This document shows positions 14,970 to 58,077 of a stretch of 64,000 bases of DNA, piece after piece. The notes beneath the pieces are model-generated. The model saw only the letters and a program-made list of their open reading frames with translations. It was not told the DNA's origin and did no database searches. Origin of the DNA: Candidatus Levyibacteriota bacterium. GTDB taxonomy: Bacteria; Patescibacteriota; Microgenomatia; Levybacterales; UBA12049. The translations under genes and the position numbers were made by a program. The stretch spans positions 21,777-85,776 of the forward strand of contig JAUSEW010000029.1 of assembly GCA_030651475.1 (NCBI GenBank), written 5' to 3'. How positions within the stretch are numbered: the first letter of the stretch is position 1; every line of letters begins with the position of its first letter.

Positions 14970-15314
14970 ATGATAAATACAGTACGAAAATATAAAAAGA
15001 AACTTAGAACCAGGTCAAAGATAAAAGGAAGTCAAAGACCAAGACTGTCTATCTTTAGATCTAACCGTTTTGCGTACGCTCAAATTATTGACGCTGAAGG
15101 AAAAAGCACAATTGTTAGCGCAACAGAAAAAGAATTGGGGAAAGTAGAAATAAAGGGAAAAGTGGAAAAAGCAAAAGCATTGGGATTGCTTTTGGCTAAA
15201 AAAGCGTTAGCGAAAAAAATTAAAGAAGTAGTTTTTGATCGGGGAAACTATGCGTATCATGGAAGAGTAAGCGCTATAGCAGCAGGCGCCAGAGAAGGAG
15301 GATTAAAATTCTAA
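14970..15314 (+). CDS. rplR: 50S ribosomal protein L18
   Basis: 114 aa; RPRLSIFRSNRF..AQIID, DRGNYAYHGRV. Confidence 0.92.
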   Translation: MINTVRKYKKKLRTRSKIKGSQRPRLSIFRSNRFAYAQIIDAEGKSTIVSATEKELGKVEIKGKVEKAKALGLLLAKKALAKKIKEVVFDRGNYAYHGRVSAIAAGAREGGLKF

Positions 15315-15811
15315 TGATGAATACGGGATTTTTACAAAAAAAACCACAAAGCGAATTTGAGGAAAAAATAATCCAAGTAAATAGGGTTTCTAAGAAAACA
15401 AAGGGAGGAAACAAAATTGGATTTTCGGTATTAATGGTGATTGGAAATAAAAAAGGAAAAGTAGGAGTAGGTTTGGGTAAAGCGTTAGACGTATCTTCGG
15501 CAATTAGAAAAGGCGTTGCTCTTGCTAAGAAGCATATGATAGATGTTCCTATTGTGAACGGAACTATTCCATTTGAGCTTTTGGTAAAATTAGGTGCGGC
15601 TAAAATTTTACTAAAACCTGCTCCTAAAGGTAGCGGAGTAATTGCCGGGGGTGCGGTAAGAAGTGTTGTTTCCGCTGCGGGAATTGAAAATATTTCATCT
15701 AAAGTTCTAGGGACGAAAAATAAAGCAAGTAACGTATACACCGCAATGGAAGCTTTGAAAAGATTGGGGCAAAGATATAGAAATATTAAGGAGGCATCCG
15801 CAAATAAATGA
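15314..15811 (+). CDS. rpsE: 30S ribosomal protein S5
   Basis: 165 aa; VNRVSKKTKGGNKIGFSVLMVIGN, GSGVIAGGAVR. Confidence 0.95.
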   Translation: MMNTGFLQKKPQSEFEEKIIQVNRVSKKTKGGNKIGFSVLMVIGNKKGKVGVGLGKALDVSSAIRKGVALAKKHMIDVPIVNGTIPFELLVKLGAAKILLKPAPKGSGVIAGGAVRSVVSAAGIENISSKVLGTKNKASNVYTAMEALKRLGQRYRNIKEASANK

Positions 15812-16248
15812 ATTTAAATAATCTTATAACGATAATAAGGAGAAAAAAAAGGCGTCTTGGTCAGGGTTATGGTTCAGGACGAGGCAAGACAGCAGGTAGA
15901 GGAACAAAAGGACAGAAAGCGCGAGGAATGGTCTCAATTTCATTTGAGGGAGGAGGAGTGTCTCTTATCAAAAGACTCCCCTTTATGCGTGGTAAGGGAA
16001 GATTCAAGCCAGTTAGCGAAAAGCCAATTATTCTAAATCTTGATGCGCTCAATAGTCTGAAAAAGAACAGTAAGGTAGATATAAAAACCTTGATAGAGAA
16101 TAAGTTGGTTGATAAAGACCGCGCAAAAGCAAACGGTGTAAAAATTTTAGGGCGCGGAAAAATAAATATTCCTTTAGATGTAAATTTACCTGTTTCTAAA
16201 TCTGCCGCTTTGAAGATTGAGAAGGCAGGCGGAAAAATACTAAAATGA
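15808..16248 (+). CDS. rplO: 50S ribosomal protein L15 (directly follows rpsE; no L30 gene)
   Basis: 146 aa; [25 protein letters not shown]. Confidence 0.93.
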
Positions 16249-17531
16249 ATAACATTTTGGGGATTTTCAAGAACAGCATTAATACTCCTGAAGTAAGGAA
16301 AAAACTTATTTTTACAGCTTTAATATTCATAGTATTTAGAATATTTGCCCACATACCTGTGTCAGGAGTAGATCTCGTTGCTCTTAAAACCCTTTTTTCT
16401 CAAAATCAATTTTTAGGACTTTTGGATGTTTTTTCAGGGGGAACGCTTGCTAATTTTTCCATTATGGCATTGGGTTTAAATCCCTATATTAATGCTTCAA
16501 TAATTTTGCAACTTTTAACCATGGTATTTCCCAAACTTGAAGAGTTATCGAAAGAAGGAGAAGCGGGTAGGCAAAAAATAAATCAATATACGAGAATGCT
16601 AACGGTGCCTTTGGCGCTTGTACAGGGTGTTGGTATGTACGCACTTTTAAAAAGTCAAAATATTATTTCATTTCTTCCGCCGATAAATTTAATTTCTTTT
16701 CTTCTTACGATGGTAGCAGGGACAATGCTTATGGTTTGGTTTGGAGAACTTATTTCGGAAAAAGGTGTTGGTAATGGAATATCACTTCTTATTTTTGCCG
16801 GAATAGTTGGAAGAATCCCGGTTATTTTTGCTCAAACAGCCGCTACGACAACAGCGACCAACATACTAAATATTATTGTTTTTCTCGTAATGGGGCTTTT
16901 AGTAATTGCTTCAATAGTCATTATAAACGAAGCAACAAGGCAGATAACTGTGTATTATGCCAAGAGAGTTAGGGGAAATAAAATGTATGGCGGTCAGTCA
17001 ACCCACCTTCCCCTTAGAGTTAATCAAGCTGGAGTAATCCCTATAATTTTCGCAGTGTCTTTAGTTCTTTTGCCCTCTTTAATTGCTAATTATTTAACGG
17101 CGTCCAGCAATCCTTCCTTAAGAAGCGTTGCGACAACGATCTCTTTGTGGTTTAATCCAGAAGGGATATTCTATAATGCTTTGTATTTTTTCTTGGTAGT
17201 AGGATTTACGTATTTTTATACGGCAGTGATTTTTAATCCAAAGAAAATTTCCGAAGAGATCCAAAAATACGGAGGTTTTATTCCAGGTATTAGGCCTGGC
17301 AGCCCTACGGCTTCGTATCTAAATTATATTCTAACAAGGATAACTTTGGCCGGAGCAATTTTCCTAGGTATTATAGCCATATTTCCTACAATCGCCAAAC
17401 TTTTTTCAAACGTTCAGACTCTTATTCTGGGAGGCACAGGGATATTGATTGTCGTATCGGTTGTCCTGGAAACAATAAAAGCGATAGAAGCGCAGCTTGT
17501 TATGAGAAATTACGAAGGATACAATAAATAG
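16245..17531 (+). CDS. secY: preprotein translocase subunit SecY
   Basis: 428 aa; 10-TM pattern and SecY signatures; spc operon position. Confidence 0.95.
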
Positions 17532-17548: not shown

Positions 17549-18085
17549 ATGAAGATAATTTTAATAGGAATTCAGGGAGCAGGAAAATCAACTCAGGGGA
17601 ATTTACTTTCGGAAAAATTAAAAATTCCTTATCTCTCAACAGGGCATATTTTTAGATTTCTGGCAAAAGAGAAAACTAAACTTGGCCGCTATATAAAAGA
17701 GATAATGAATGCCGGATATCTTATTCCGGATAAAAAAACAGTTTCTATTGTCAGCAATTATCTTAAACGTCCGGAATATGCTAATGGCTATATCTTGGAT
17801 GGTTTTCCGAGAACCCTTGATCAGGTAAAAGAATTTAAAAACGGAGTTGATAAAGTAGTTTATTTAAAAGTTTCAGATAAAGAGGCTCTCTGGAGACTTT
17901 CCTATAGAAATGGAGACAACAGAGAAGACGAGACCCTAGCTGCTCTTAGGAAAAGAATTGAGCTTTTTCATAAGCTCACAGAACCTGTTTTGGATTATTA
18001 TAAGAACAAAGGGAATTTAGTTGAGGTAGACGGAGAAAAAGCAGTTGAGGAAGTGCATAAAGAAATTTTGGAAAAGATAAAATAA
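17549..18085 (+). CDS. adk: adenylate kinase (short type, no zinc lid)
   Basis: P-loop GIQGAGKSTQ, GFPRTLDQ motif; ATG 17549 preferred over GTG 17531. Confidence 0.85.
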   Translation: MKIILIGIQGAGKSTQGNLLSEKLKIPYLSTGHIFRFLAKEKTKLGRYIKEIMNAGYLIPDKKTVSIVSNYLKRPEYANGYILDGFPRTLDQVKEFKNGVDKVVYLKVSDKEALWRLSYRNGDNREDETLAALRKRIELFHKLTEPVLDYYKNKGNLVEVDGEKAVEEVHKEILEKIK

Positions 18086-18107
18086 TATATCCTCTTAATT
18101 TTAAAAA

Positions 18108-18662
18108 ATGATCATTGTTTTTATCGGGCCACCATATGCCGGCAAAGATACTCAAGGAAGACTTTTAAGTCAGGAGTTTGGAAATATGCCCATTTTTAGT
18201 ATGGGTCATTTAATTCGTGAAGCACGAGAGTCTGGCAACGAAACGTTTATAAAAGCTTACGATGCATATGCTTTGAAAGGATTCCATCTTCCAACAGCGA
18301 TAAAATTTCCTTTACTTAAGGAAAAAATGGATCAAGCAAGAGACGGATTTATATTGGATAATTTTCCGGCAACAAAAGATGATCTTGTGATGCTTAATAA
18401 CTATTTATTGCAGGCAAATAAAAAAATTAATAAAGTAATATATATAGATATATCAGAGGAAGAGATGAGAAAGCGTTTTAAAAACGCATTCCGTGGCAGA
18501 AAAGACGATGATCCAGATATCGTAGCCACAAGGAGGGAAATTCAAAATCAGGATAGAGTTCCTGTCCTTGAATTTTATAAAAGTCAAAATCTTCTCTCGG
18601 AAATAAATGGCGAAGAAGATATAGATAAAATTCATAAAGAAATTTTGGAAAAGTTACAATAA
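18108..18662 (+). CDS. adenylate-kinase-like paralog with degenerate P-loop (GPPYAGKDTQ)
   Basis: 184 aa; same length and shared C-terminus HKEILEK with adk; DNFPATKDD in place of GFPRT. Confidence 0.65.
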   Translation: MIIVFIGPPYAGKDTQGRLLSQEFGNMPIFSMGHLIREARESGNETFIKAYDAYALKGFHLPTAIKFPLLKEKMDQARDGFILDNFPATKDDLVMLNNYLLQANKKINKVIYIDISEEEMRKRFKNAFRGRKDDDPDIVATRREIQNQDRVPVLEFYKSQNLLSEINGEEDIDKIHKEILEKLQ

Positions 18663-18674
18663 AGAACAATTAAT

Positions 18675-19478
18675 ATGATTAATATTAAAACGAATGAAGA
18701 GATTGAAATAATGCAACTGGGGGGGGAAATTTTAGCTGATGTTTTGTTTAAGGTTTTAGAGCATGCGAAAGTTGGGGTTTCGGAACTTGAATTAGATAAA
18801 TTGGCAGAAGAGTTGATTCTGAAAGCAGGAGGAGAACCTGGATTTAAAAAAGTTGCAAATTATAATCATACAATATGCGTATCCACGAACAATGTTGTGG
18901 TACACGGAATACCGACTAATTATAAATTTAAAAAAGGGGATGTTGTCGGAATAGACTGCGGAGTGTATTTTAAAGGATTTCATACGGATGCCGCACATAC
19001 GGTGCGAGTTAAAAGTTTCCCGCCTCAGCGGGATCCCTCAAGCGATGGGACAAAGTTTAAAGTTCAAAGTTCGGATGGGGTAGATAGGTTTTTAGAAACT
19101 GGAAAAAAAGCGTTGGAAAAAGGAATAGAGCAGGCGAAAATTGGCAATAGAGTGGGGCATATTTCTAAAGCAATACAGGATACGGTTGAAGGAAAAGGTT
19201 ACTCCATAGTTAGAAGTTTGGTTGGGCATGGGGTAGGCAGAAAACTTCATGAGGATCCTGAAGTTCCCGGATTTTTAAATGTTCCCATTCAGAGAACACC
19301 GCTTCTTAAAGAGGGAATGACTATAGCAATTGAAGTCATTTACAATATGGGCAAAAGAGATGTTGTATATGCTAATAATGATGGATGGACGATTAAAACT
19401 AAAGATGGAAGTATTTCCGGCCTTTTCGAAAGAACAGTTGCCATAACCAAAGAGAGTCCTAGGATACTAACCGTATAG
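18675..19478 (+). CDS. map: methionine aminopeptidase type I
   Basis: 267 aa; pita-bread motifs (GIDCGV, GHGVG, EPEV), operon position. Confidence 0.9.
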   Translation: MINIKTNEEIEIMQLGGEILADVLFKVLEHAKVGVSELELDKLAEELILKAGGEPGFKKVANYNHTICVSTNNVVVHGIPTNYKFKKGDVVGIDCGVYFKGFHTDAAHTVRVKSFPPQRDPSSDGTKFKVQSSDGVDRFLETGKKALEKGIEQAKIGNRVGHISKAIQDTVEGKGYSIVRSLVGHGVGRKLHEDPEVPGFLNVPIQRTPLLKEGMTIAIEVIYNMGKRDVVYANNDGWTIKTKDGSISGLFERTVAITKESPRILTV

Positions 19479-19847: not shown

Positions 19848-19961
19848 ATGAAAGTTCAAGCCAGTATAAAAGCAAGATGTGCTAAATGTAAAATTCTTAA
19901 AAGAAAAGGTGTTCTAAGAGTGGTGTGTGAGAACCCTAAGCACAAACAAAGACAAGGATAA
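19848..19961 (+). CDS. rpmJ: 50S ribosomal protein L36 (not in ORF track, below length cut-off)
   Basis: translated by hand: [37 protein letters not shown]; Cx2C...Cx4H zinc ribbon. Confidence 0.9.
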
Positions 19962-25653: not shown

Positions 25654-26808
25654 ATGGATTTTCGTGCTTATGTAAGTGTTGATAAGAGACGTAAGGCAGT
25701 AGAAGATAATTTAAAAGTTAACCTTTCTAATATTGGCAATTATTCCTTTGATTCAAAGCTGGCATCTTCAAGAAATTGCGAGAATATGATTGGAGCAGTT
25801 CAAATTCCATTAGGGATTGCTGGGCCTTTAAAAATAAAAAGCGATTTCTCTGAAGATGAAGTTTTTTTACCGTTAGCTACAACAGAAGGGGCTTTAGTTG
25901 CATCTGTAAATAGGGGATGTAAGGTAATTACTCTAAGCGGAGGAGTAACTGTTAATAGCCAAAGGATAGGAATAACAAGAGCTCCGGTTTTTGTGGTGAA
26001 TAATCAAAAAGAAGGTAAAAAGTTCGTAGAGTGGGTAAATTCTAGCTTTAAACTTCTTAAGCAAGTTACGGAATCCACTTCATCTCATCTGACCCTTTTA
26101 GATATAAAATCTACCTTCATGGGAAGAAATGTTTATTTAAGATTTAGATTTGATTCACAAGATGCAATGGGCATGAATATGGCAACAATTGCGTGTACCA
26201 AAGCGGCATCTTTTATAGAAAAAGAAACAAAAGCGCGATTAGTGGCGATTTCCGGGAATATGTGTGTTGATAAAAAGCCTAGTTTATTAAATTTTATTGA
26301 AGGAAGAGGGTATTCCGTTTCAGCTGACATATTAATCCCACGAAAAATTGTAGAATCTACGTTAAAGTCTAAAACAGAAAGTATCGTCGAAGTCGCGCAG
26401 CGCAAGCTAATGTACGGGTCTTTACTTTCGGGCAGTGTTGGGGCAAATGCTCACTATGCAAATATTTTATCAGCTATGTTTATAGCGACTGGACAAGACG
26501 CAGCGCATGTGGCAGAATGTTCTGTAGGTATAACAACAGCGGAAGAAATAAAGGGTGATCTCTATGTCTCAATATATCTACCCGATCTCGTGGTAGGAAC
26601 AGTTGGCGGAGGAACATCTCTTGAAACCCAAAAAGAAGCATTATCAATTATGGGAATTAGTGGTGGCAATAATGGAAAAAATGCAAGAAAATTAGCAGAA
26701 ATTATTGGAGGAGCTGTGCTCGCAGGAGAGATTTCCTTATTAGCATCTTTAGCGGATAATTCTTTAGCATCAGCTCATCGGAAATTAGGGAGGGGAGAAA
26801 AAATATAA
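25654..26808 (+). CDS. hmgA: 3-hydroxy-3-methylglutaryl-CoA reductase (class-I-like catalytic domain)
   Basis: 384 aa; ENMIG, DAMGMNM, GTVGGGT signatures. Confidence 0.9.
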   Translation: MDFRAYVSVDKRRKAVEDNLKVNLSNIGNYSFDSKLASSRNCENMIGAVQIPLGIAGPLKIKSDFSEDEVFLPLATTEGALVASVNRGCKVITLSGGVTVNSQRIGITRAPVFVVNNQKEGKKFVEWVNSSFKLLKQVTESTSSHLTLLDIKSTFMGRNVYLRFRFDSQDAMGMNMATIACTKAASFIEKETKARLVAISGNMCVDKKPSLLNFIEGRGYSVSADILIPRKIVESTLKSKTESIVEVAQRKLMYGSLLSGSVGANAHYANILSAMFIATGQDAAHVAECSVGITTAEEIKGDLYVSIYLPDLVVGTVGGGTSLETQKEALSIMGISGGNNGKNARKLAEIIGGAVLAGEISLLASLADNSLASAHRKLGRGEKI

Positions 26809-26812
26809 AATT

Positions 26813-27850
26813 ATGACAGGAATTGTTGGATACGGAACCTATATTCCGAAATATCGTCTTAGACTTTCTGAAATTGCCAAGGTGTGGGGAAAGGATACGG
26901 CCGAAATAGAAAATGGACTGCGTATTTCTGAAAAAGCTGTTCCTGGTTTTGATGAAGATGCCGTAACTATGGGAGTGGAAGCATCAAAAAAAGCCATTGC
27001 TATGGCAGGTATTAATCCTTCTTCTCTGCAAAGCGTATATTTTGGTTCAGAAAGTCATCCTTACGCTGTTAATCCTTCTTCAACAACACTTGGAGAATAT
27101 TTGGGTATAGGAAATAATTATTTTGCGGCAGATTTGGAGTTTGCCTGCAAAGCCGCTACAGCCGGCATGCAGATAACAGTGGGATTAATAGATAGCAAAA
27201 ATATAAAATATGGTTTGGTTGTGGGAAGTGACACTGCTCAAGGTAAACCTCACGATGCGTTAGAATATACAGCAGCGAGTGCCGCATGCGCGTACATTTT
27301 GGGGAATAAGGAAACAGAAATTATTGCAAAAATTCTGGAAATGTCATCCTTCTCATCCGACACTCCTGATTTCTGGAGAAGGGATGGAGCCAAATATCCA
27401 TCCCATTTTGGAAGATTTACTGGCGAACCGGCGTATTTTACTCACATAATTCAAGAGGGGAAAAATTTACTTGCAAAAAGCAAACTTAAGCCTGAAGATT
27501 TTGACTACTGTGTTTTTCATATGCCTAACGGTAAATTTCCAAGAGTTGTTGCTAAAAAACTTGGATTTACCTCCGGGCAACTAGCACAATCTCTTATAGT
27601 TGATAAAATTGGCAATCCGTATTCAGCATCTGCATTGATGGGATTAGCAAGCGTCCTAGATATTGCAAAACCAAAACAAAAAATATTCTTTGTTTCTTAC
27701 GGATCGGGTGCAGGATCAGATGGTTTCATATTTGAAACTACGAGTAGAATTTTACAAAAACAAAAAAAGATAATTACAGTCTCAAAGCAAATGGAAGATA
27801 AGATTTATATTTCCTATCCAACTTATTTAAGACAAACACACGTCATATGA
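26813..27850 (+). CDS. hydroxymethylglutaryl-CoA synthase (archaeal / short type)
   Basis: 345 aa; thiolase-fold HMGCS pattern, N-terminal GIVGYGTYIPKYRL. Confidence 0.85.
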   Translation: MTGIVGYGTYIPKYRLRLSEIAKVWGKDTAEIENGLRISEKAVPGFDEDAVTMGVEASKKAIAMAGINPSSLQSVYFGSESHPYAVNPSSTTLGEYLGIGNNYFAADLEFACKAATAGMQITVGLIDSKNIKYGLVVGSDTAQGKPHDALEYTAASAACAYILGNKETEIIAKILEMSSFSSDTPDFWRRDGAKYPSHFGRFTGEPAYFTHIIQEGKNLLAKSKLKPEDFDYCVFHMPNGKFPRVVAKKLGFTSGQLAQSLIVDKIGNPYSASALMGLASVLDIAKPKQKIFFVSYGSGAGSDGFIFETTSRILQKQKKIITVSKQMEDKIYISYPTYLRQTHVI

Positions 27851-28995
27851 AAATAAATATATTGGGAACTCATGCAACGAAATTTGGAGAGTTATGGAAT
27901 ATATCTCCGCGTGCATTAGCAAGGGAGGCAATGGAAAATGCATTAAATGCATCCGGCTTGAAAGCATCTGATATAGACGCTTTATATGTAGGGAATATGT
28001 TGTCCGGAATTTTGGGTAATCAAGCGAATTTAGGATCCTTGCTCGTTGAAGAGCTGGGTGTTCAAGTTCCCGCTTTTAGAATAGAAGGCGCTTGCGCTTC
28101 AGGAGGTTTAGCTTTGCATAACGCGATTAACAGTCTTAAAGCGGGGCAATATAAAACAGTTTTGGTTTTAGGTATAGAAAAAATGACAGATCATAGTCAA
28201 GATGAGATTACAAATGCTTTAATGTCTGCGGGATCGGACGAAGAGCGTTTGGCTGGTGCAACATTTCCCGGAGTATATGCGCTAATGGCCCAAGCCTATA
28301 TGCAGCAATATAAAGTAAGCGAAGAAGATTTGGCTTGCGTTTCCGTAAAAAACCATTATCATGGAACGCTAAATCCCAAAGCTCAATTCCAATTTCCCAT
28401 AACCATAGCCGATGTTATGAGAAGCGCAAAGATTGCTGATCCGCTCAAACTTCTAGATTGTTCTCCGATTTCAGATGGGGCTGCGGCAGTTGTTATTACC
28501 AGCGAAAATATTCTTAAAAAAAATAAGAAACCCATACAGATTATTGCAAGCGAAGTAGCCACAGACACGCTTAGTCTTCATGACAGAAAATCTTTTACCA
28601 GTTTGAGTGCCGTTGTTGAAGCATCTACGAAAGCGTATGGAAAAGCAGGATTAAAACCTTCGGATATTGATGTTGCTGAAATTCATGATTGTTTTTCAAT
28701 TTCAGAGGCGATTGCAACAGAAGATTTAGGTTTTTCTAAAAAGGGCGAAGGTGCAAGGGATATTGCCAAAGGCAAGAGAACGCTTTTTAAAGGGGATATT
28801 ATTTGTAATCCATCGGGAGGACTAAAAGCCTGCGGTCATCCTGTTGGAGCAACAGGCATAAAGCAGATAGTCGAGCTTACGGAACAGCTTAGAGGAGAAG
28901 CTGGGAAACGTCAGGTTGAAAAAGCAAGGATTGGTTTGGCTCACAATGTCGGGGGAAGCGGTACGATAGCGGCAATTCATATTTTACAAAAATAG
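27847..28995 (+). CDS. acetyl-CoA C-acetyltransferase (archaeal-type thiolase)
   Basis: 382 aa; thiolase pattern with active-site Cys (EGACASGG), HDCFSI, NPSGG. Confidence 0.85.
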   Translation: MKINILGTHATKFGELWNISPRALAREAMENALNASGLKASDIDALYVGNMLSGILGNQANLGSLLVEELGVQVPAFRIEGACASGGLALHNAINSLKAGQYKTVLVLGIEKMTDHSQDEITNALMSAGSDEERLAGATFPGVYALMAQAYMQQYKVSEEDLACVSVKNHYHGTLNPKAQFQFPITIADVMRSAKIADPLKLLDCSPISDGAAAVVITSENILKKNKKPIQIIASEVATDTLSLHDRKSFTSLSAVVEASTKAYGKAGLKPSDIDVAEIHDCFSISEAIATEDLGFSKKGEGARDIAKGKRTLFKGDIICNPSGGLKACGHPVGATGIKQIVELTEQLRGEAGKRQVEKARIGLAHNVGGSGTIAAIHILQK

Positions 28996-29000
28996 ATATT

Positions 29001-29303
29001 ATGATAACATCACCGGTAAAACTTTGGAGAAGGCAAAAAAATACATCAGCTCTTATAGGGAAAAAAGGGAAAATTTTGCAGTGGACAATTATTCGGGTTC
29101 CGGCTAAATCTTTTATTGATCAAGCGCCGTACCCTGTTGTAATTGTGAAAATGCAAAATGGAGAAAATATGATTGGGCAATTAGTTGACTGGCAGGAAAA
29201 AGATTTGATAGTAGGGAAAGACGTTATTGCTGTTTTGCGAAGATTGAGAACGGAAGGGAAAGAAGACGTTATCTACTACAACATTAAATTCAAGCCTCTA
29301 TGA
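29001..29303 (+). CDS. DUF35-family OB-fold protein (thiolase/HMGCS partner), lacking zinc-ribbon
   Basis: 100 aa; OB-fold pattern; no cysteines; position right after thiolase as in archaea. Confidence 0.6.
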   Translation: MITSPVKLWRRQKNTSALIGKKGKILQWTIIRVPAKSFIDQAPYPVVIVKMQNGENMIGQLVDWQEKDLIVGKDVIAVLRRLRTEGKEDVIYYNIKFKPL

Positions 29304-30367
29304 AAAAAATTCAAGTTTCTGCCCCGGGTAAGTTACATTTATTGGGCGAACACGTGGTAGTACACGGAAAACCAGCTATTATTGCAACGGTAAATAAACG
29401 CTGTTTTGTAGAAATTACTCCCCGAAAAGATAGGAAAATAGAAATTATTTCTGAAAATTTGAAAGCAAGTAAGATAGTTACGGAAAAAGAAATTATTGCA
29501 AAAACTAAAGAAGCGCAAACAAAATGGGAAACTTATATAAAAACTAATGAGATATCTCTTCTTAAGTCTATAGCTTCAGATCCCTTAGACTTTCCGATTA
29601 TTGTTATTGGTGAGACTTTAAAATATCTTAACAAAACTTTACCATTTGGTTTTACTCTATCAATAAAATCAGATATTCCAATTGGTTCCGGGATGGGATC
29701 TTCTGCGGCACTTAGTGTTTCTATAGCTGGTGCCATGTATTTATTGTTTAATAAAAATTTAGATAAAGAAGTTATAAATGAAATTGCCTATCTTGCAGAA
29801 CAAAAGAAACACGGCCTTCCGTCCGGAGGAGACAATGTTGCTAGTTGTTTTGGAGGAATGGTTTGGTATCGTAAAGAAACACCAGACTTAAAAATTATCA
29901 AACCAATTCCTTTTTCCTTCCCCCGAAAATTGGCAAAGAATTTTGTCGCCATTCATACAGGTATTCCAATTGAATCAACAGGCGAAATGGTAAGTATCGT
30001 ACGGGGACTATATCAAACAAAAAAAGATTTTGTTGAAAATATTTTATCAAGCCAGGAAAAACTAACACGAGAGCTTCTATCTGCAATAAAGGATGGCGAC
30101 GACACTCTAATGATACGTATCATTAGAGCGGGAGAGAAAAACCTTGAAGCGTTAGGGGTTGTAGGAAAAAAGGCACAAGCTATAATTAGGGAAATAGAAA
30201 AGTTAGGAGGAGCGGCAAAAATATCTGGAGCAGGAGGTATTAAGAATGGGTCGGGAATGCTTCTTGCTTACCATAAAACACCAGTAGCTCTTGATGAAGC
30301 TTGTTTGCAATTTAAACTTACGAATAGTAAAATAGCGCTTGGAGACGAGGGCTTAAGACAGGAGTAA
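29300..30367 (+). CDS. mvk: GHMP kinase, mevalonate kinase-like
   Basis: 355 aa; APGKLHLLGEHVVV N-terminus, PIGSGMGSSAA motif 2; contains 24-bp palindrome copy 3. Confidence 0.75.
   Translation: MKKIQVSAPGKLHLLGEHVVVHGKPAIIATVNKRCFVEITPRKDRKIEIISENLKASKIVTEKEIIAKTKEAQTKWETYIKTNEISLLKSIASDPLDFPIIVIGETLKYLNKTLPFGFTLSIKSDIPIGSGMGSSAALSVSIAGAMYLLFNKNLDKEVINEIAYLAEQKKHGLPSGGDNVASCFGGMVWYRKETPDLKIIKPIPFSFPRKLAKNFVAIHTGIPIESTGEMVSIVRGLYQTKKDFVENILSSQEKLTRELLSAIKDGDDTLMIRIIRAGEKNLEALGVVGKKAQAIIREIEKLGGAAKISGAGGIKNGSGMLLAYHKTPVALDEACLQFKLTNSKIALGDEGLRQE
30105..30128. repeat. 24-bp perfect palindrome CTCTAATGATACGTATCATTAGAG inside mvk coding sequence, copy 3 of 3
   Basis: read directly; 25 nt (30104-30128) identical to 1196-1220. 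Confidence 0.95.
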
Positions 30368-30371
30368 AATT

Positions 30372-31226
30372 ATGGTACCCATAAACTATGGAGGAAGAAT
30401 TGAAAGTAGAGGTCCTGAAACCTATAGGAGTCAGTCCTTATTAGACACTATTTTTCAAGCAACTGGTTTAGAAAATTTTCAAGGAAGTGCAGTTGTTATC
30501 GATTTAATGTCGGGTCCTGGAGGAATAGCGCTTAATCTTCAGAAAAAAGCCTCCAGACATTCTTATGCTGTTCTAGATTATGATCAGGAACAATTAGCCA
30601 AAATAGGGGAGCACGAGCCCGTAAATAAGATATTGGCTGATGTAAGGAATGTATCTTCTGTTGTTAAAGGAGAATCTGTAGATATCGCAACTGCTCGTTA
30701 TGGGATTAAGGATATACCTCAAGGGCAACAGCTTCAAGCGCTCAAAGGTATTAATGAGATATTGAGACCAGGAGGAGTTTTTGTGCTTACAGATATGATT
30801 TCCTTGGAAGGTGAAGGATTGCAGAGGTGGCTTAACATACAACATAGTCAAAAGCAGCAGCTTAGCGGAAGAGAAATTGAAAAAGAGGGAGAGTGTTATA
30901 TCCCGACAGAAAAAGAGTGGCTAGCGATGTTAAAAGAAGTGGGTTTTGAAGCGGAAGTTTTTGGTTATTATACAAGTCCTATTTCTACTGGGGATTGGCT
31001 TACGGGAAATCAATTTGGTAATCCAAAATCACCGGAAGCGGCCAGGAAAAAAGCTATTATGGACGAGATAATAATGAACGCTCCAGAAGGTGTGAAAAAA
31101 GCGTTTAATGTGCGACAAGGAGTGAATGGTATGGAAATTGATTATCCAGTTGTTATAATAAGAGCAGTTAAGAAAGTAGCAGAGTCTGGTTTGCCTACTG
31201 CTGGTGATTTATATGCCGCAAGCTAA
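30372..31226 (+). CDS. class I SAM-dependent methyltransferase
   Basis: 284 aa; motif I VIDLMSGPGGIA, motif post-I ILRPGGVFVL. Confidence 0.7.
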   Translation: MVPINYGGRIESRGPETYRSQSLLDTIFQATGLENFQGSAVVIDLMSGPGGIALNLQKKASRHSYAVLDYDQEQLAKIGEHEPVNKILADVRNVSSVVKGESVDIATARYGIKDIPQGQQLQALKGINEILRPGGVFVLTDMISLEGEGLQRWLNIQHSQKQQLSGREIEKEGECYIPTEKEWLAMLKEVGFEAEVFGYYTSPISTGDWLTGNQFGNPKSPEAARKKAIMDEIIMNAPEGVKKAFNVRQGVNGMEIDYPVVIIRAVKKVAESGLPTAGDLYAAS

Positions 31227-32190
31227 AAAGATTACTGTTTCGGCGCCGGGGAAATTAATGCTTTTAGGTGAGCATGCTGTTGTCTATGATCATCCCTGTT
31301 TGGTAACTGCTGTTGACCAAAGAATGCGGGCAACTGTTGAAACTTTAGATTCTTTAGAATTCCAATTGGAAGCAGAAGACGTAAAGGTTACCGGTTATAA
31401 AAAGCCTTTAAGCGAAGTTGGTATTGGAGATATCCCAAAGGGCGCAAAATTTGTAGAAATTGCTCTAAAAAATATTAATGAAAAATATCCTCTTAAAACA
31501 GGATTAAAAATAACAACTACATCGGAATTCTCTTCCCAATTCGGATTTGGATCTTCTTCCGCATCAACAGTCTGTACGATAAAAGCGGTTTCTGAAATTC
31601 TGGGTTTGAATTTATCTGAAAAAGCAATTTTTGATCTTGCGTTTAAAACTGTTTTGGATATTCAGGGAAAAGGATCGGGTTTTGATGTGGCAGCTGCGGT
31701 TTATGGCGGAACTCTGTATTTCGTAACCGGCGGAAAAGTAATTGAGCCTTTAGATATTAAATCATTGCCGTTAATTGTTGGATATAGCGGAGTAAAAGGA
31801 GACACAGTAACGTTGATGAACAAAGTAAAAGAGACTTTTGCCGATAAACAAGGTCGTCTTAATCAAATTTATAATAGTATTGAAGCCTTGGTTGATCAAG
31901 CAAAAATGGTACTTCTTAAAAGCGATTGGAAAACATTTGGAGACCTAATGAATCAGAATCAGAAATATTTAAGCGAATTAGGAATTAGTATTGAAAAACT
32001 TGATAATATGATTAAAGGCGCACTTGATGCAGGCGCTTATGGCGCAAAGCTTTCCGGCGCAGGAGGAGGGGATTGTATGATTGCTATTGCGACAGAAGAA
32101 AAAAAACAAGCAGTTGAGCAAGGCATCAATGCAGTTGGCGGAGAAGTTATCAATGTTGGCACCAACGCAGAAGGCGCAAGAGTGGAATAA
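31204..32190 (+). CDS. GHMP kinase (mevalonate / phosphomevalonate kinase; assignment ambiguous)
   Basis: 328 aa; APGKLMLLGEHAVVY, GFGSSSAS, KLSGAGGGDCMIA motifs; 23-nt overlap with upstream methyltransferase gene. Confidence 0.7.
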   Translation: MIYMPQAKKITVSAPGKLMLLGEHAVVYDHPCLVTAVDQRMRATVETLDSLEFQLEAEDVKVTGYKKPLSEVGIGDIPKGAKFVEIALKNINEKYPLKTGLKITTTSEFSSQFGFGSSSASTVCTIKAVSEILGLNLSEKAIFDLAFKTVLDIQGKGSGFDVAAAVYGGTLYFVTGGKVIEPLDIKSLPLIVGYSGVKGDTVTLMNKVKETFADKQGRLNQIYNSIEALVDQAKMVLLKSDWKTFGDLMNQNQKYLSELGISIEKLDNMIKGALDAGAYGAKLSGAGGGDCMIAIATEEKKQAVEQGINAVGGEVINVGTNAEGARVE

Positions 32191-32194
32191 AATT

Positions 32195-32971
32195 ATGGGA
32201 CATGAAGCATCATTAGTGCCAGATATTTTGCCTCCAGGTAGAAGAATTGCTCTGATAGATATAGATGGTACATTGACTGAGGGTCTTACCATCTCTTCGT
32301 TTGCTGAATACTTAGACAATAACGATTCTTTTAATTCATCTTCGTGGGATCATATGCAGGAAGATTTTTCTCGTTATAGCGCCAGCGATCATGGACATGC
32401 TGCTTATGAGCAATTTGCCGTAGATTTAGTATTGCATTATGCTGATGGATTAAGAGACTACAGAGTAAGCGATGTCGAAGCTATGGCTGGCAAGTTTTTT
32501 GTTTCTGTGCAAAGAAATGAGGTTCCTGAATACAGAGTGTATCCATTTTCTCCTCAGCTAGTTCATCTTATGAATAAAATAGGAACAACAATAGCAGTTT
32601 CCGGTTCTCCAGCTGAGTCACTTGCTCCGTTAAAACGCATTCTTAATTTAGGAGATTTAAGAGCTACTGCTATTGGACAAAAGAATGGAATCTATACAGG
32701 AAGAGTAGATATTAATTTGGCATTAGACTCTGAAAAGAAAAAGGTAGTTGGGGAATATATAGCTGAAGATACAGATAGCGCACGCTCTTTTGCTTTTGGA
32801 GATACGATGCATGATTTGCCCATGCTGGAAGCTGTGGGAAATCCTTTTGTGGTTGGAGATAATTCGCATTTACTAGCTGTTGCAAGAAGAAGGGGATGGT
32901 CTATAATTAATTCTGACAATGCTATTGATCAAGTAGCGCAGAGAATAAACACTTTATTTAAGAATACTTAA
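32195..32971 (+). CDS. HAD-superfamily hydrolase, subfamily IB-like
   Basis: motif I IALIDIDGTLTE, motif IV GDTMHDLPML; ATG 32195 chosen because ORF-track start 32081 overlaps upstream gene. Confidence 0.65.
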   Translation: MGHEASLVPDILPPGRRIALIDIDGTLTEGLTISSFAEYLDNNDSFNSSSWDHMQEDFSRYSASDHGHAAYEQFAVDLVLHYADGLRDYRVSDVEAMAGKFFVSVQRNEVPEYRVYPFSPQLVHLMNKIGTTIAVSGSPAESLAPLKRILNLGDLRATAIGQKNGIYTGRVDINLALDSEKKKVVGEYIAEDTDSARSFAFGDTMHDLPMLEAVGNPFVVGDNSHLLAVARRRGWSIINSDNAIDQVAQRINTLFKNT

Positions 32972-33948
32972 TGAAAGCAACTGCAGTAGCCCCGTCAAAT
33001 ATAGCATTCGTCAAATATTGGGGTAAAAAAGACGAAAAGCTTCGACTTCCTGAAAACGGCAGTATCTCCATGAATTTAAATAATCTTCAGACTACAACAA
33101 CTGTTGAGTTTAATAAAGATTTTAGAGAAGACTTAATTATCATTAACGATCAGAAAGAGGAAAATGAAGGAAGCAGAGCTATAAAGCATTTAGATAGAAT
33201 TAGAATTCTTGCAAAAATAAATTACAAAGCAAAAGTAGTAACTAAAAATAATTTTCCTACAGGTACCGGACTTTCTTCATCTGCATCAGGTTTTGCAGCG
33301 TTAACTTTAGCCGGCGCAAAAGCAGCTGGATTAAATCTGTCGGAAAAAGAATTGTCAATTCTTGCAAGACAAGGATCTGGTTCTGCTTGCCGTTCTATTC
33401 CAGGTGGATTCGTAGAATGGTTAGATGGGGATACAAGCGATACATCTTATGGCGTGTCGTTATATCCTAAAAATTATTGGGACATTGTTGATGTGGTTGC
33501 TGTTGTTAGTAAAAACAAAAAAGAAGTTAGCACGACTGAAGGACAAAAATTGGCAAAATCAAGTCCGTTTTTTCCGATTCGTTTAGCAAGAATAAAAGAA
33601 AAAATTAGATTAATAAAACAATATTTGAAGGAAAAAGATTTTAAAAATTTCGGAGAATTGTTGGAAGCGGAAGCATTGGAACTTCATGCAATTATGTTAA
33701 CCTCAACACCTTCGCTTATATATTGGTTGCCGGGAACTTTGAAAGTTATGCATGCTGTTAAAAGATGGAGAGCTGAAGGATTACAAGTTTATTTTACTGT
33801 TAATACAGGGCAGGATATTCATCTGATTTGTCAAAAAAAAGACGTTGAAAAAGTTGTTAAAAAAGCAGAAGAGATATTAGATGTTCAAAAAACAATTGTC
33901 AATTATCCTAGCAAAGGAGCGCATTTAATTTCAGCACATCTTTTTTAA
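32971..33948 (+). CDS. mvaD: diphosphomevalonate decarboxylase
   Basis: 325 aa; SNIAFVKYWGKKDE, GLSSSASGFAAL. Confidence 0.88.
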   Translation: MKATAVAPSNIAFVKYWGKKDEKLRLPENGSISMNLNNLQTTTTVEFNKDFREDLIIINDQKEENEGSRAIKHLDRIRILAKINYKAKVVTKNNFPTGTGLSSSASGFAALTLAGAKAAGLNLSEKELSILARQGSGSACRSIPGGFVEWLDGDTSDTSYGVSLYPKNYWDIVDVVAVVSKNKKEVSTTEGQKLAKSSPFFPIRLARIKEKIRLIKQYLKEKDFKNFGELLEAEALELHAIMLTSTPSLIYWLPGTLKVMHAVKRWRAEGLQVYFTVNTGQDIHLICQKKDVEKVVKKAEEILDVQKTIVNYPSKGAHLISAHLF

Positions 33949-34838
33949 AAAGTTCTTTTTTCTATAATTTCAACTAAATCTAAAAATTTCTTTTTATATT
34001 TTATTTCCATTTCCATATTTGCAATAATTATTTTAGCGCTCTTTATATTATCTTTAACTATCTCTTTTTGAGATGCTAAGTCTTTATGTTTTCGGTTGGT
34101 ATCAAATATATCGTCTTGAGATTGAAAAGCTATGCCCAATCCCAATCCTAATTCTTTGCAAAACCTTTCTGCGTGCGAAGTTAATTCTCCTGCCAAGGAC
34201 GCACCAATCAATAAGGGATAAATAAAAGAGTATCTTGCTGTTTTTAGATAGTTTATCTTAGAATTTAAAGTCGGTATTATTTTTTGGCGTGATTGAGAAT
34301 CAATATCGAGCATTTGACCCACTATTGTTCCATCAACCATATCGAAAAAAAACTTTCTTACTCTTTGAATTGCAGATTGATCAAAGTCCAAATTTAAATT
34401 TATAATTTCCGTAGCCCAATTGAAGAAAAGATCTCCTAAAAGAATTGCCTGTGAGTTACCGAAATGTTCATAATTTTTATTTCCCCTTTCTTTTTTTAAT
34501 TTCTCACCAATATATATATGAGAGGCATATATTCCATGACGCATGTTTCCTTTATCCATAATATCATCATGGATAAGTGCAAATATATGAAAGATCTCGA
34601 GTGCAATTAATAATTTCAGAACTTTTTCTGTTTCCTTTCCTCCAAAAGCCTGATATGTTAGAAATGCGATAAATGGGCGTATGCGTTTTCCGCCTGATAA
34701 AGTAATTTTTTTAGCATAGTTAATATAGTCAATAATTGAAGAATCTTTGGTATAATTAATAATGCTCTTCATTTTTTTATCAAGGTAGTCCTGGAGATAG
34801 GGGTCAAATTTTTGTTTAAATACTTCTAAGTCGTTCAT
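33945..34838 (-). CDS. short-chain trans-polyprenyl diphosphate synthase (FPP/GGPP synthase family)
   Basis: 297 aa; first DDxxD (LIHDDIMD) and second (FQSQDDIFD) Asp-rich motifs. Confidence 0.85.
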   Translation of the reverse strand: MNDLEVFKQKFDPYLQDYLDKKMKSIINYTKDSSIIDYINYAKKITLSGGKRIRPFIAFLTYQAFGGKETEKVLKLLIALEIFHIFALIHDDIMDKGNMRHGIYASHIYIGEKLKKERGNKNYEHFGNSQAILLGDLFFNWATEIINLNLDFDQSAIQRVRKFFFDMVDGTIVGQMLDIDSQSRQKIIPTLNSKINYLKTARYSFIYPLLIGASLAGELTSHAERFCKELGLGLGIAFQSQDDIFDTNRKHKDLASQKEIVKDNIKSAKIIIANMEMEIKYKKKFLDLVEIIEKRTF

Positions 34839-34842
34839 TGTT

Positions 34843-35625
34843 TTATTTTAATCTTGCTCCAAATCTTCTTTCTCTTTTAGAATAATCAATTAAAGCTCTT
34901 ACGAAGTCCTTCATATCGGCGTCCGGTAAAAGCTTTGAGATAGAGTAAAATTCTGAATTCTGGTTAAGCCAGCCAATGTCGGAAGTTCTTTGTTCGCCGC
35001 TAGTTCTTATTATTAGATCTGCAGGATGAATTTCTCCTTGACCATCTCTTAACCTTTTTAACATATCATGAGTAATTTTGGTATTTTTTGGAAGTTTTTG
35101 TATTTCCTGCATGATTCTTAATTCCTGATCTTCTCCTCCAAAATCAATTGCGATGCAAAGAATTTTTCCTTTGTTGTTTTTTGTCATATCTTCAACTTTT
35201 CGCATAGTATCTTTTAAGTTCAAGGGGATTCTATCTTTTCTGCCAATATGGATAAAGCGGCTTTTATTTTTTAAAAGGTCTGGCGTAATTTCTTTTATTG
35301 CTCCTTCAAAAAGTTTCATTAAATCCTCAACTTCTTTTTTTGACCTTTTCCAGTTATCGGCAGCAAATCCCCAAATAGTAATAGTATTTATAGGTAATTC
35401 CTGTAAATTACTTAAGACATTTTTTAGAACCCTATATCCTTGTTGATGTCCAATAATAGGAATGCTGTTTAGCCTTCTTGCCCATCGTCCATTACCATCA
35501 GGAATAATTAATAGATGATTAGGAAATTTTCCTTCAGGGATACTCTTTAAATCCGGAAATCTTTCGAAAATACTCTTTTTCATAAAGCAGATTGTAATTG
35601 TATCCTGAAAAATAGCAAAATGCAA
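34843..35625 (-). CDS. uppS: undecaprenyl-diphosphate synthase (cis-prenyltransferase)
   Basis: 260 aa; HLLIIPDGNGRWA, TIWGFAADNWKRS. Confidence 0.88.
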   Translation of the reverse strand: MHFAIFQDTITICFMKKSIFERFPDLKSIPEGKFPNHLLIIPDGNGRWARRLNSIPIIGHQQGYRVLKNVLSNLQELPINTITIWGFAADNWKRSKKEVEDLMKLFEGAIKEITPDLLKNKSRFIHIGRKDRIPLNLKDTMRKVEDMTKNNKGKILCIAIDFGGEDQELRIMQEIQKLPKNTKITHDMLKRLRDGQGEIHPADLIIRTSGEQRTSDIGWLNQNSEFYSISKLLPDADMKDFVRALIDYSKRERRFGARLK

Positions 35626-57243: not shown

Positions 57244-58077
57244 ATGACAAATTTAAGAGAAAATGGCGTATTAATGGGTGTTGCTGTAGGCGTAAGGCAA
57301 GAATCGTTACTCGGTAAATACGAAGTTAGACCTTATAAGCCTGAAGATGCAATTACAATATATAACGAGCTGGAGGTACCAAATTGGGCACCTTGGCTAA
57401 GGGCATCAGCCGAAACTTTGGCAAAAAGAGCAGAGGTTTTCCCAGATGGGCAGCTTGCTGTATGGGAAGGAAAACGTCCAATAGTTAATATATCTCTATC
57501 TAGGTTTAATTACGATGGAAACCCAGACAACCTTTCCACATGGGATGAACTAATGGGAGTTCCCGCTACGGGCAAAGATACATTTGATCTAAATGGAAAT
57601 GCTTTAGGAATGATGTCAATTAATGTCCATCCAGATTATCAAGGTAAAGGTTTGACAAAAGTTGTAATTGATGCTGTTAAAGATAGAGCAGTTAAATTAG
57701 GCGTAACTCATATAATGGGTTCATTTAGACCGAGTCAGTTTGGCGAATATAGTACCCAGAATCCAAATGCTAGTATTAAAGAATATATTGATAAAAAAAG
57801 AAAAGAAGATAATATGCCTCATGATGCATGGTTAAGAGCATTGACAAAAAATGGCATGAGAATGTTGCGTATAGATGATGCAGCAATGGTAATACCAGAT
57901 GTAACAAGAAGTGAATTTGAAGATTATAAAAAATCATATAAGCCAGAAAAATGGAAACAAATAGCTCCTAGTGTATGGAGATGTGGGGAAACGGGAGTAT
58001 GGTTAGCTGGAGAGAGATCAGCCGTTTATGTCGAAAGTAATGTTTGGGGAATTTTGGACAAAAACGGAACCTCTTAA
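57244..58077 (+). CDS. GNAT-family N-acyltransferase (paralog 2)
   Basis: 277 aa; motif A YQGKGLTKVV; alignable by eye with 55769..56446. Confidence 0.5.
   Translation: MTNLRENGVLMGVAVGVRQESLLGKYEVRPYKPEDAITIYNELEVPNWAPWLRASAETLAKRAEVFPDGQLAVWEGKRPIVNISLSRFNYDGNPDNLSTWDELMGVPATGKDTFDLNGNALGMMSINVHPDYQGKGLTKVVIDAVKDRAVKLGVTHIMGSFRPSQFGEYSTQNPNASIKEYIDKKRKEDNMPHDAWLRALTKNGMRMLRIDDAAMVIPDVTRSEFEDYKKSYKPEKWKQIAPSVWRCGETGVWLAGERSAVYVESNVWGILDKNGTS

Follow-up and report, generated by a model that had tools for sequence, protein, structure and literature searches.

An old adenylate kinase paralogue with a rebuilt acceptor pocket between secY and map in Levybacteria

Levybacteria belong to the class Microgenomatia of the Candidate Phyla Radiation (CPR; also called Patescibacteria), bacteria for which a reduced metabolism, nucleotide scavenging in some lineages and, often, gaps in annotated pathways are reported. 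In one of them, Candidatus Levyibacteriota, a groundwater bacterium with a tiny genome (assembly GCA_030651475.1, contig JAUSEW010000029.1, positions 21,777 to 85,776 of the forward strand; the whole of this stretch of 64,000 nucleotides is called the window hereafter), two intact open reading frames (ORFs) of the adenylate kinase (Adk) family stand back to back on the + strand between secY and map, as an earlier note on this DNA had described: adk1 (17549-18085) and its diverged paralogue adk2 (18108-18662), the latter encoding a protein of 184 amino acids (aa). This raises the question as to what the second of these genes does beside the first. The earlier note had left a choice between a neofunctionalised nucleoside monophosphate (NMP) kinase and a pseudo-enzyme; the motifs, the ratio of non-synonymous to synonymous substitution rates (dN/dS), the synteny and the catalytic residues all support the former, and the latter is disfavoured. 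As predicted from its sequence, adk2 is probably an active ATP-dependent kinase whose phosphate-bearing acceptor is other than AMP.

By its Pfam match adk2 is a member of the Adk superfamily, but its active site lacks defining features of adenylate kinase proper (Arg88, Gln92, Thr31 and Gly85). Both proteins are recognised by the Pfam family PF00406 (ADK; gathering cut-off 26.8 bits), with 120.6 bits for adk1 and 79.9 bits for adk2, and they are 32% identical to each other over their whole length (E = 5e-25). The adenylate kinase models of NCBIfam (equivalogs and TIGR01351) give adk2 at best 112.6 bits against a cut-off of 187; the best NCBIfam match of adk1 is also to adenylate kinase and, at 167.2 bits, likewise lies under this cut-off. 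The UMP-CMP kinase model TIGR01359 scores adk2 at 96 bits against a cut-off of 207.6, the guanylate kinase family is absent from the Pfam and NCBIfam matches listed for adk2, and no other kinase family in these two collections matches it above threshold. The protein is 100% identical to an NCBI entry named 'nucleoside monophosphate kinase [Candidatus Levybacteria bacterium]', whereas JGI names it 'adenylate kinase'; a search of the literature found no paper describing adk2, Adk paralogues in CPR, or Adk-family GMP kinases. In an AlphaFold2 model built from the family alignment (mean pLDDT 95, pTM 0.89), strands alternate with helices as expected, the lid is short, and the fold is that of an Adk, comprising CORE, NMP-binding and lid regions. 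When this model was compared with the PDB by Foldseek, the top matches were all adenylate kinases in ligand-bound forms, the best full-length one being the Adk of Mycobacterium tuberculosis (2CDN; TM 0.91/0.90, root-mean-square deviation 1.5 Å). A PDB sequence search agrees with the Adk fold and returns the UMP-CMP kinase 1TEV at E = 1.6e-15.

The features that set adk2 apart are located in the site where an adenylate kinase holds its AMP. Both families were mapped onto Escherichia coli Adk, whose numbering is used unless that of adk2 itself is indicated; the references were M. tuberculosis Adk, human AK1 and human CMPK1, and the sample comprised 37 orthologues of adk2 from the locus and 34 of adk1, the latter serving as an internal control. 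In adk2's own residue numbers, its motifs read GPPYAGKDT in the P-loop (7-15), SMGHLIR (31-37), KGFHLPTAIKF (57-67), DNFPATKDD (84-92) and, in the short lid, RFKNAFRGRKDDD (123-135). Every one of the 37 orthologues keeps K13, T15, Q16, R36, R119, R156, D158, D159 and R167, while R123 is found in 36 of them and is invariant in a 116-sequence alignment of the family. Around the acceptor, Thr31 is replaced by Met, Leu58 by His, Val64 by Lys, Ile65 by Phe and Tyr171 by Gln in all 37, and Gly85 by Asn and Gln92 by Asp in 36 each. Position 88, an Arg in all 34 adk1 orthologues, is Ala in 33 of the adk2 orthologues, Gly in three and Glu in one. The control family retains T31 (or Ser), R36, L58, G85, R88, Q92, R119, R156, D158 and R167 without exception, and R123 in 31 of its 34 members. 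In adenylate kinase, the OG1 atom of Thr31 binds adenine N7, the Gly85 carbonyl and the OE1 atom of Gln92 bind N6, the discrimination of AMP from GMP resides in Gly85:O and Gln92, and Arg88 is 'strictly conserved' and positions AMP for receiving the phosphate (PMC3369945). As adk2 has lost the residues that define AMP recognition and kept those of phosphoryl transfer other than R88, it bears the signature of a changed acceptor, not that of a dead enzyme. The main anomaly of the protein is its remodelled AMP site, above all the loss of Arg88, rather than its P-loop.

The P-loop is where the earlier note had placed the emphasis. The motifs that it reported, GPPYAGKDTQ and DNFPATKDD, are indeed there; its description of the first as degenerate seems the wrong one, since the Walker lysine and G7, G12 and T15 are intact and invariant and only positions 10 and 14 vary, so that the pattern GxxGxGK(G/S)T is matched in part. 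At position 10, Gly is replaced by Phe, Tyr or Leu. Position 14 is Asp in the window and Gly, Glu or Asn in other members of the family, and because of this variability it is unlikely to be mechanistically critical. Nor is adk1 the canonical copy that it had been taken for: its P-loop reads GIQGAGKST, and the non-textbook pattern GIQG[AS]GKSTQ (window 17549-17600), with Ile8, Gln9 and Ser14, is invariant in its 34 orthologues. A Gln at position 9 recurs in further Adk-like representatives that were retrieved. A Tyr at position 10 is likewise not restricted to adk2; a genome scan found it in at least ten Bacteroidota Adk-like proteins and in one from Dormiibacterota, with the P-loop GPPYSGKGTQ or GPPYAGKGTQ. 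These proteins keep STGD..R and DG[FY]PRT..Q, the elements of a canonical AMP site, and the Bacteroidota ones, 27-36% identical to adk2, have in common with it the exchange of Gly10 for Tyr and the short lid. Since a Tyr P-loop and a standard site are combined in them, Tyr10 is compatible with an otherwise standard Adk site. Short Adk-like proteins of this kind are encoded in many Bacteroidota genomes and one Dormiibacterota genome (L039-L085, e.g. L046:4995-5561), and they look like a separate paralogue family.

Across its own lineage, adk2 is conserved in sequence and in place. A word-indexed homologue search returned 200 proteins; among the best 120, which are 48-100% identical to adk2, exact GPPYAGKDT is present in 62 and DNFPAT in 95, and in most of the other P-loops position 10 is Tyr or Phe and position 14 is Asp, Gly, Asn or Glu. 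The protein is of full length, and more than 100 homologues align with it from one end to the other. In the alignment of 116 full-length members, numbered here by the residues of adk2 itself, the invariant columns include G7, P9, G12, K13, T15, G33, P62, K66, F67, L70, N85, P87, R123, R129, R131, D133, D134, R142 and Q146, with at least 90% conservation at M32, R37, Y54, K57, H60, A88, T89, D92, D149 and R150. Compared with the closest relative for which DNA is available (L006), adk2 has dN = 0.098 and dS = 0.85, hence dN/dS = 0.115; for adk1 the ratio is about 0.05, with dS saturated. A synteny scan with one genome per GTDB species found an adk2 orthologue (46-83% identity) in 33 species genomes and on other contigs in addition, below which identity falls sharply to 27-36%. 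Wherever a locus includes its flanks, adk1 comes after secY, and the gene immediately downstream of adk2 is map. The tandem pair, whose conservation in relatives the earlier note had proposed to examine, is thus kept in at least 33 species genomes; the pattern that it associated with a decaying duplicate, namely a second copy absent from relatives and frameshifted elsewhere, is clearly not the one seen in more than 120 homologues and at least 33 syntenic genomes. The hosts of the 33 genomes are labelled Levybacteria, Levyibacteriota, Microgenomates, 'Patescibacteria group' or, in 12 third-party assemblies, 'uncultured Gammaproteobacteria', a label that is read as wrong because the same genes occur in the same order at those loci.

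How did such a pocket arise from that of an adenylate kinase? When 1.84 billion cluster representatives were searched with a profile, 148 proteins reached E <= 1e-30, and many of the top hits were long, eukaryote-like multi-domain Adk repeat proteins whose scores are additive; only single-domain hits were used, and among them the combination of Ala88, Asp92 and Lys64 is found in only six representative clusters. The nearest neighbours of these clusters show graded, intermediate combinations. P0143/L086 and P0279/L087 carry GPPGAGKGT together with Asn58, Lys64, Asn85, Arg88 and Asp92, P0156 has Lys88 and Asp92, P0296/L089 has Arg88 and Asn92, and P0287/L088 (GCA_040960625.1) has Arg88 and Gln92. 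The four intermediates whose loci were looked up (L086-L089) sit at the adk2 position too: secY and an adk1-type gene precede them, and map follows directly wherever the flank can be read; the L088 locus also holds an AAA_18 gene. These genes of neighbouring CPR lineages thus share both locus and clade with adk2, but unlike adk2 they retain Gly10 and Arg88 (or Lys88), position 92 being Gln, Asn or Asp and Lys64 appearing only in the Asp92 forms. Among 246 sequences with readable motifs, the 126 that have Ala or Gly at position 88 all have Lys64, Asp92 and a residue other than Gly at position 10, and every sequence with Arg88 or Lys88 that has Asp92 and Lys64 keeps Gly10. The phylogeny of both copies, another of the checks proposed earlier, was addressed with a neighbour-joining tree (182 columns, 100 bootstraps), which is rough, concerns a short protein and has unreliable deep nodes. 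In this tree the adk1 clade is supported at 100% and is not sister to adk2; the adk2 core reaches 66%, and adk2 plus the R88/K88 intermediates 67%. As adk1 and adk2 are not sisters and graded intermediates occupy the same slot, the sequences indicate that the duplication is old and that the pocket was rebuilt stepwise; a recent tandem duplication is ruled out by the 32% identity and by the non-sister placement in the tree. In terms of order, Lys64 and Asp92 would have come first, and the loss of Arg88 would have followed, coinciding with the arrival of a bulky residue at position 10.

In the function that we propose, adk1 would be the housekeeping AMP:ATP phosphotransferase, and adk2 an old paralogue under purifying selection, a P-loop phosphotransferase with a rebuilt NMP pocket. 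Because R36, R156 and R167 are kept, adk2 would transfer the gamma-phosphate of ATP to a phosphate-bearing acceptor, and this acceptor would be a nucleotide. Lys64, His58 and Asp92 would form a polar pocket suiting guanine or uracil, bases whose pairing edge offers both a carbonyl and an N-H donor. The missing Arg88 may be compensated by Lys64, which predates its loss, and/or by the bulky residue at position 10. GMP would be the most attractive single substrate, a tentative choice made because Microgenomatia are reported to be without guanylate kinase (Gmk). Metagenome-assembled genomes of this class 'lack guanylate kinase' (Chiriac et al., PMC9166423), and the complete genome of OT8, the first cultivated Microgenomatia strain, encodes Adk, three Cmk-annotated genes, PyrH, Tmk and Ndk, and no Gmk (bioRxiv 10.64898/2026.06.21.733656). 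In its broadest form, the proposal is that adk2 could have replaced guanylate kinase non-orthologously, or act more broadly on (d)NMPs, its Adk fold having been turned from adenine to guanine recognition by Q92D, V64K, L58H and the loss of Arg88, and that it fills, in Levybacteria, the Gmk gap reported for Microgenomatia, the secY-map interval being an expandable 'NMP kinase island' of two to four paralogues for nucleotide scavenging; in this form it is speculative, and we would not expect it to hold in full.

Several points weigh against this proposal. As regards GMP, OT8 has no Gmk and yet has only one Adk, and Gln92 persists in the more basal genes that occupy the adk2 position, so that adk2 cannot be a class-wide substitute for Gmk. 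In the OT8 study, nucleoside diphosphates are proposed to come directly from polynucleotide phosphorylase (bioRxiv 10.64898/2026.06.21.733656), which would reduce the need for a GMP kinase. More generally, the pocket argument does not separate GMP, UMP, CMP, deoxynucleoside monophosphates or even AMP. As regards activity, catalysis could be badly weakened, as Arg88 is described as strictly conserved and as important for the placing of AMP; the prediction of an active kinase, for the family as a whole, comes from sequence comparison and a fold model, and the parts assigned to Lys64 and Tyr10 are likewise putative.

Among the closest known systems, the short-lid bacterial Adk represented by M. 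tuberculosis (2CDN) has the same fold, length class and operon position as adk2 and has in common with it the Walker lysine, R36, R119, R123, R156, D158/D159 and R167; by comparison with this enzyme, adk2 lacks Arg88, Gln92, Thr31, Gly85 and Gly10 and has gained the invariant Lys64, Phe65 and His58. UMP-CMP kinase (TIGR01359; human CMPK1, 1TEV) provides the precedent of an Adk-family enzyme retuned to another base, in that case via Thr31Ala and Gln92Asn. UMP-CMP kinases keep Arg88, Gly85 and Gly10, whereas adk2 has Met31, Asp92 and Ala88 where they have Ala31, Asn92 and Arg88. Gmk, which reads guanine with carboxylates plus a hydroxyl, is a possible functional analogy only: adk2, which is not a member of that family, would offer Asp92 with Lys64 and His58. 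Because adk2 lies outside the guanylate kinase family, a role as GMP kinase would amount to a non-orthologous replacement.

Is a protein without Arg88 still an enzyme at all? That adk2 is a dead or nearly dead pseudo-enzyme, with a non-catalytic role such as nucleotide sensing or binding to adk1 or to a ribosomal or secretion component, is in our judgement unlikely. Besides the otherwise strictly conserved Arg88, the protein has lost the P-loop Gly10, it scores far under every NCBIfam adenylate kinase cut-off (112.6 vs 187), and it evolves faster than adk1, the identities across the same genomes being 46-83% for adk2 and 61-85% for adk1, all of which speaks for this reading. However, it is usually the Walker lysine or the arginines of the lid that a pseudo-enzyme loses, whereas nine catalytic residues of adk2 (K13, T15, R36, R119, R123, R156, D158, D159 and R167) vary hardly or not at all. 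Change is limited to the acceptor pocket, where the new residues are in turn invariant, which looks like selection for a new ligand, and the exchange of Gly10 for Tyr coexists with fully canonical sites in the Bacteroidota proteins. Where a pseudo-enzyme would have lost several catalytic residues and have a relaxed active site, adk2 has lost only R88 and has a dN/dS of 0.115. As for the two losses themselves, the G10V mutant of E. coli Adk (PDB 1E4V) presumably keeps activity, and R97 mutants of vertebrate AK1 lose about 30-fold, rather than at least 1000-fold.

The remaining alternatives keep the protein active and change its task. The completely rebuilt, polar base pocket, together with a gene that lies within a ribosomal protein operon, would suit an NTPase like Fap7/AK6, in which an Adk-like fold acts as an ATPase in ribosome maturation, or a kinase of a non-nucleotide acceptor. 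The location is uninformative, as adk holds this operon position in these genomes anyway and does so in many other bacteria; the arginines for the acceptor phosphate (R36, R156 and R167) are invariant, and no positive evidence, such as an above-threshold match to another kinase family in Pfam or NCBIfam, points to such a task, which we regard as improbable. Equally improbable is a second AMP kinase, that is, an isoenzyme with other kinetics, donor preference or regulation. The ancestral paralogue may have used AMP, since the basal gene L088 at the adk2 position has R88 and Q92, and pairing of adenine N6 and N1 with Asp92 and Lys64 is conceivable in principle; in the Levybacteria form, however, the adenine contacts Thr31, Gly85 and Gln92 and also Arg88 are all replaced, and uniformly so, and two AMP kinases are hard to justify in a genome as reduced as is reported for CPR bacteria. 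The reading of adk2 as a duplicate in decay, on its way to becoming a pseudogene, is suggested by its non-canonical motifs only and is refuted by its conservation, a dN/dS of about 0.12, synteny in at least 33 species, the pLDDT of 95 and the old duplication, which leaves it practically no chance.

A few particulars of the two copies differ from what had been described. The length of 184 aa, given earlier for both proteins, is correct for adk2; adk1, an orthodox short-lid adenylate kinase, is 178 aa long from the ATG at 17549 and reaches 184 aa only from a GTG at 17531. The ATG has a GGAG 8 nt upstream and yields the N-terminus MKIILIG, as in the orthologues. Between the two genes lies an AT-rich spacer of 22 nt (18086-18107, + strand) in which there is no obvious Shine-Dalgarno sequence and no promoter-like or terminator-like site was reported; in many relatives, genes at the secY-map locus abut or overlap. 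The C-terminus HKEILEK is shared by the two copies, as had been noted, the exact match being particular to this genome: adk2 of the closest relative ends in IYKKILGQL, and HKEILEK sits on a C-terminal motif, GExxIxxIHxxIL, that members of both families have at these loci. Over their last 59 nt, adk1 (18027-18085) and adk2 (18604-18662) are 76% identical, including an exact run of 21 nt that encodes HKEILEK, and these shared ends may reflect chance on a common motif with AT-rich codons or else a very short conversion tract. Gene conversion as a general cause of the shared HKEILEK is unsupported, the exact match being limited to this genome and resting on a motif common to both families.

The two genes are embedded in a spc-type ribosomal protein operon whose order on the + strand of the window is rpsE, rplO, secY, adk1, adk2, map, infA, rpmJ (19848-19961), rpsM, rpsK and rpsD. 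G+C content is 35-39%. The upstream neighbour secY (16245-17531, + strand) is an ORF of 428 aa, its orthologues at the related loci, matched by BLASTP with the window protein as seed, being PF00344 SecY; the downstream neighbour map (methionine aminopeptidase; 18675-19478, + strand) is an ORF of 267 aa, its orthologues being called with PF00557 Peptidase_M24. The rpsE gene (S5) overlaps the start of rplO (L15) at window 15314-16248, and the L30 gene is absent between them, which fits the frequent loss of uL30 in CPR bacteria that has been reported (PMC9297842). Along the + strand run of ribosomal protein genes (window 2784-23861) both GC skew and AT skew are strongly positive, and cumulative GC skew climbs over most of the 64 kb; this suggests that the window lies on one replichore with its genes co-oriented with replication.

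In related genomes, further kinases occupy the interval between secY and map. A third P-loop kinase gene, of about 189 aa, lies between adk1 and adk2 in 24 of the 33 genomes (e.g. L003:3425-3997, L001:3420-4004) and is also found at L088:2941-3504. Its product, possibly a further (d)NMP kinase, matches Pfam AAA_18; in NCBIfam it comes closest to PRK08356 'hypothetical protein' and to the kinase part at the N-terminus of 'anti-phage dCTP deaminase', both under cut-off. Three Levybacteria genomes have a fourth ADK-like gene, strongly diverged and 207-307 aa long (L001:2552-3205, from the same genome as L014; L019:3496-4419; L024:3816-4439), with GPEGSGK[TS]T as P-loop and GGFRT where GFPRT would be expected; a 67-aa ORF comes after it in L001. 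The secY-map interval behaves as an expandable array of nucleotide-kinase paralogues. The lineage of the window has only adk1 and adk2 in this interval; the extra kinases have no homologue in the rest of the 64 kb, and tblastn found no Gmk, PyrH, Cmk, Tmk or AAA_18-type kinase elsewhere in the window. The ORF at 57244-58077 was considered as an NMP kinase on account of its Walker-like GVPATGKD and was set aside, as its only match is a weak one to GNAT.

Farther downstream, the window holds a mevalonate pathway cluster (25654-35625) with genes for HMG-CoA reductase, an HMG-CoA synthase-like protein, a thiolase, an OB-fold protein, two GHMP kinases and diphosphomevalonate decarboxylase, into which a methyltransferase gene is inserted. 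The HMG-CoA synthase-like protein matches ACP_syn_III_C only, and the small OB-fold protein is OB_ChsH2_C; the trio of synthase, thiolase and OB-fold protein resembles an arrangement described in archaea. After this cluster, genes for a polyprenyl synthase and an undecaprenyl-diphosphate synthase are found on the opposite strand.

Taken as a family, adk2 is an Adk subfamily that is small and restricted to its lineage; its acceptor pocket has been rebuilt, intermediates are still living, and its link to a reported pathway gap is plausible but unproven. For the biology of these bacteria, it is a concrete candidate, and a cloneable one, for a nucleotide kinase activity to which no gene has been assigned. 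To enzymologists it offers a natural experiment in which Arg88 has been lost under purifying selection, always coupled to a bulky P-loop residue, and the living intermediates (R88/Q92, R88/N92 and R88/D92/K64) mark the route of the change. Should adk2 prove to be an ordinary AMP kinase or inactive, it would be a lineage-specific paralogue of modest interest; should a specificity for GMP, or another that fills a gap, prove true, its importance would rise.

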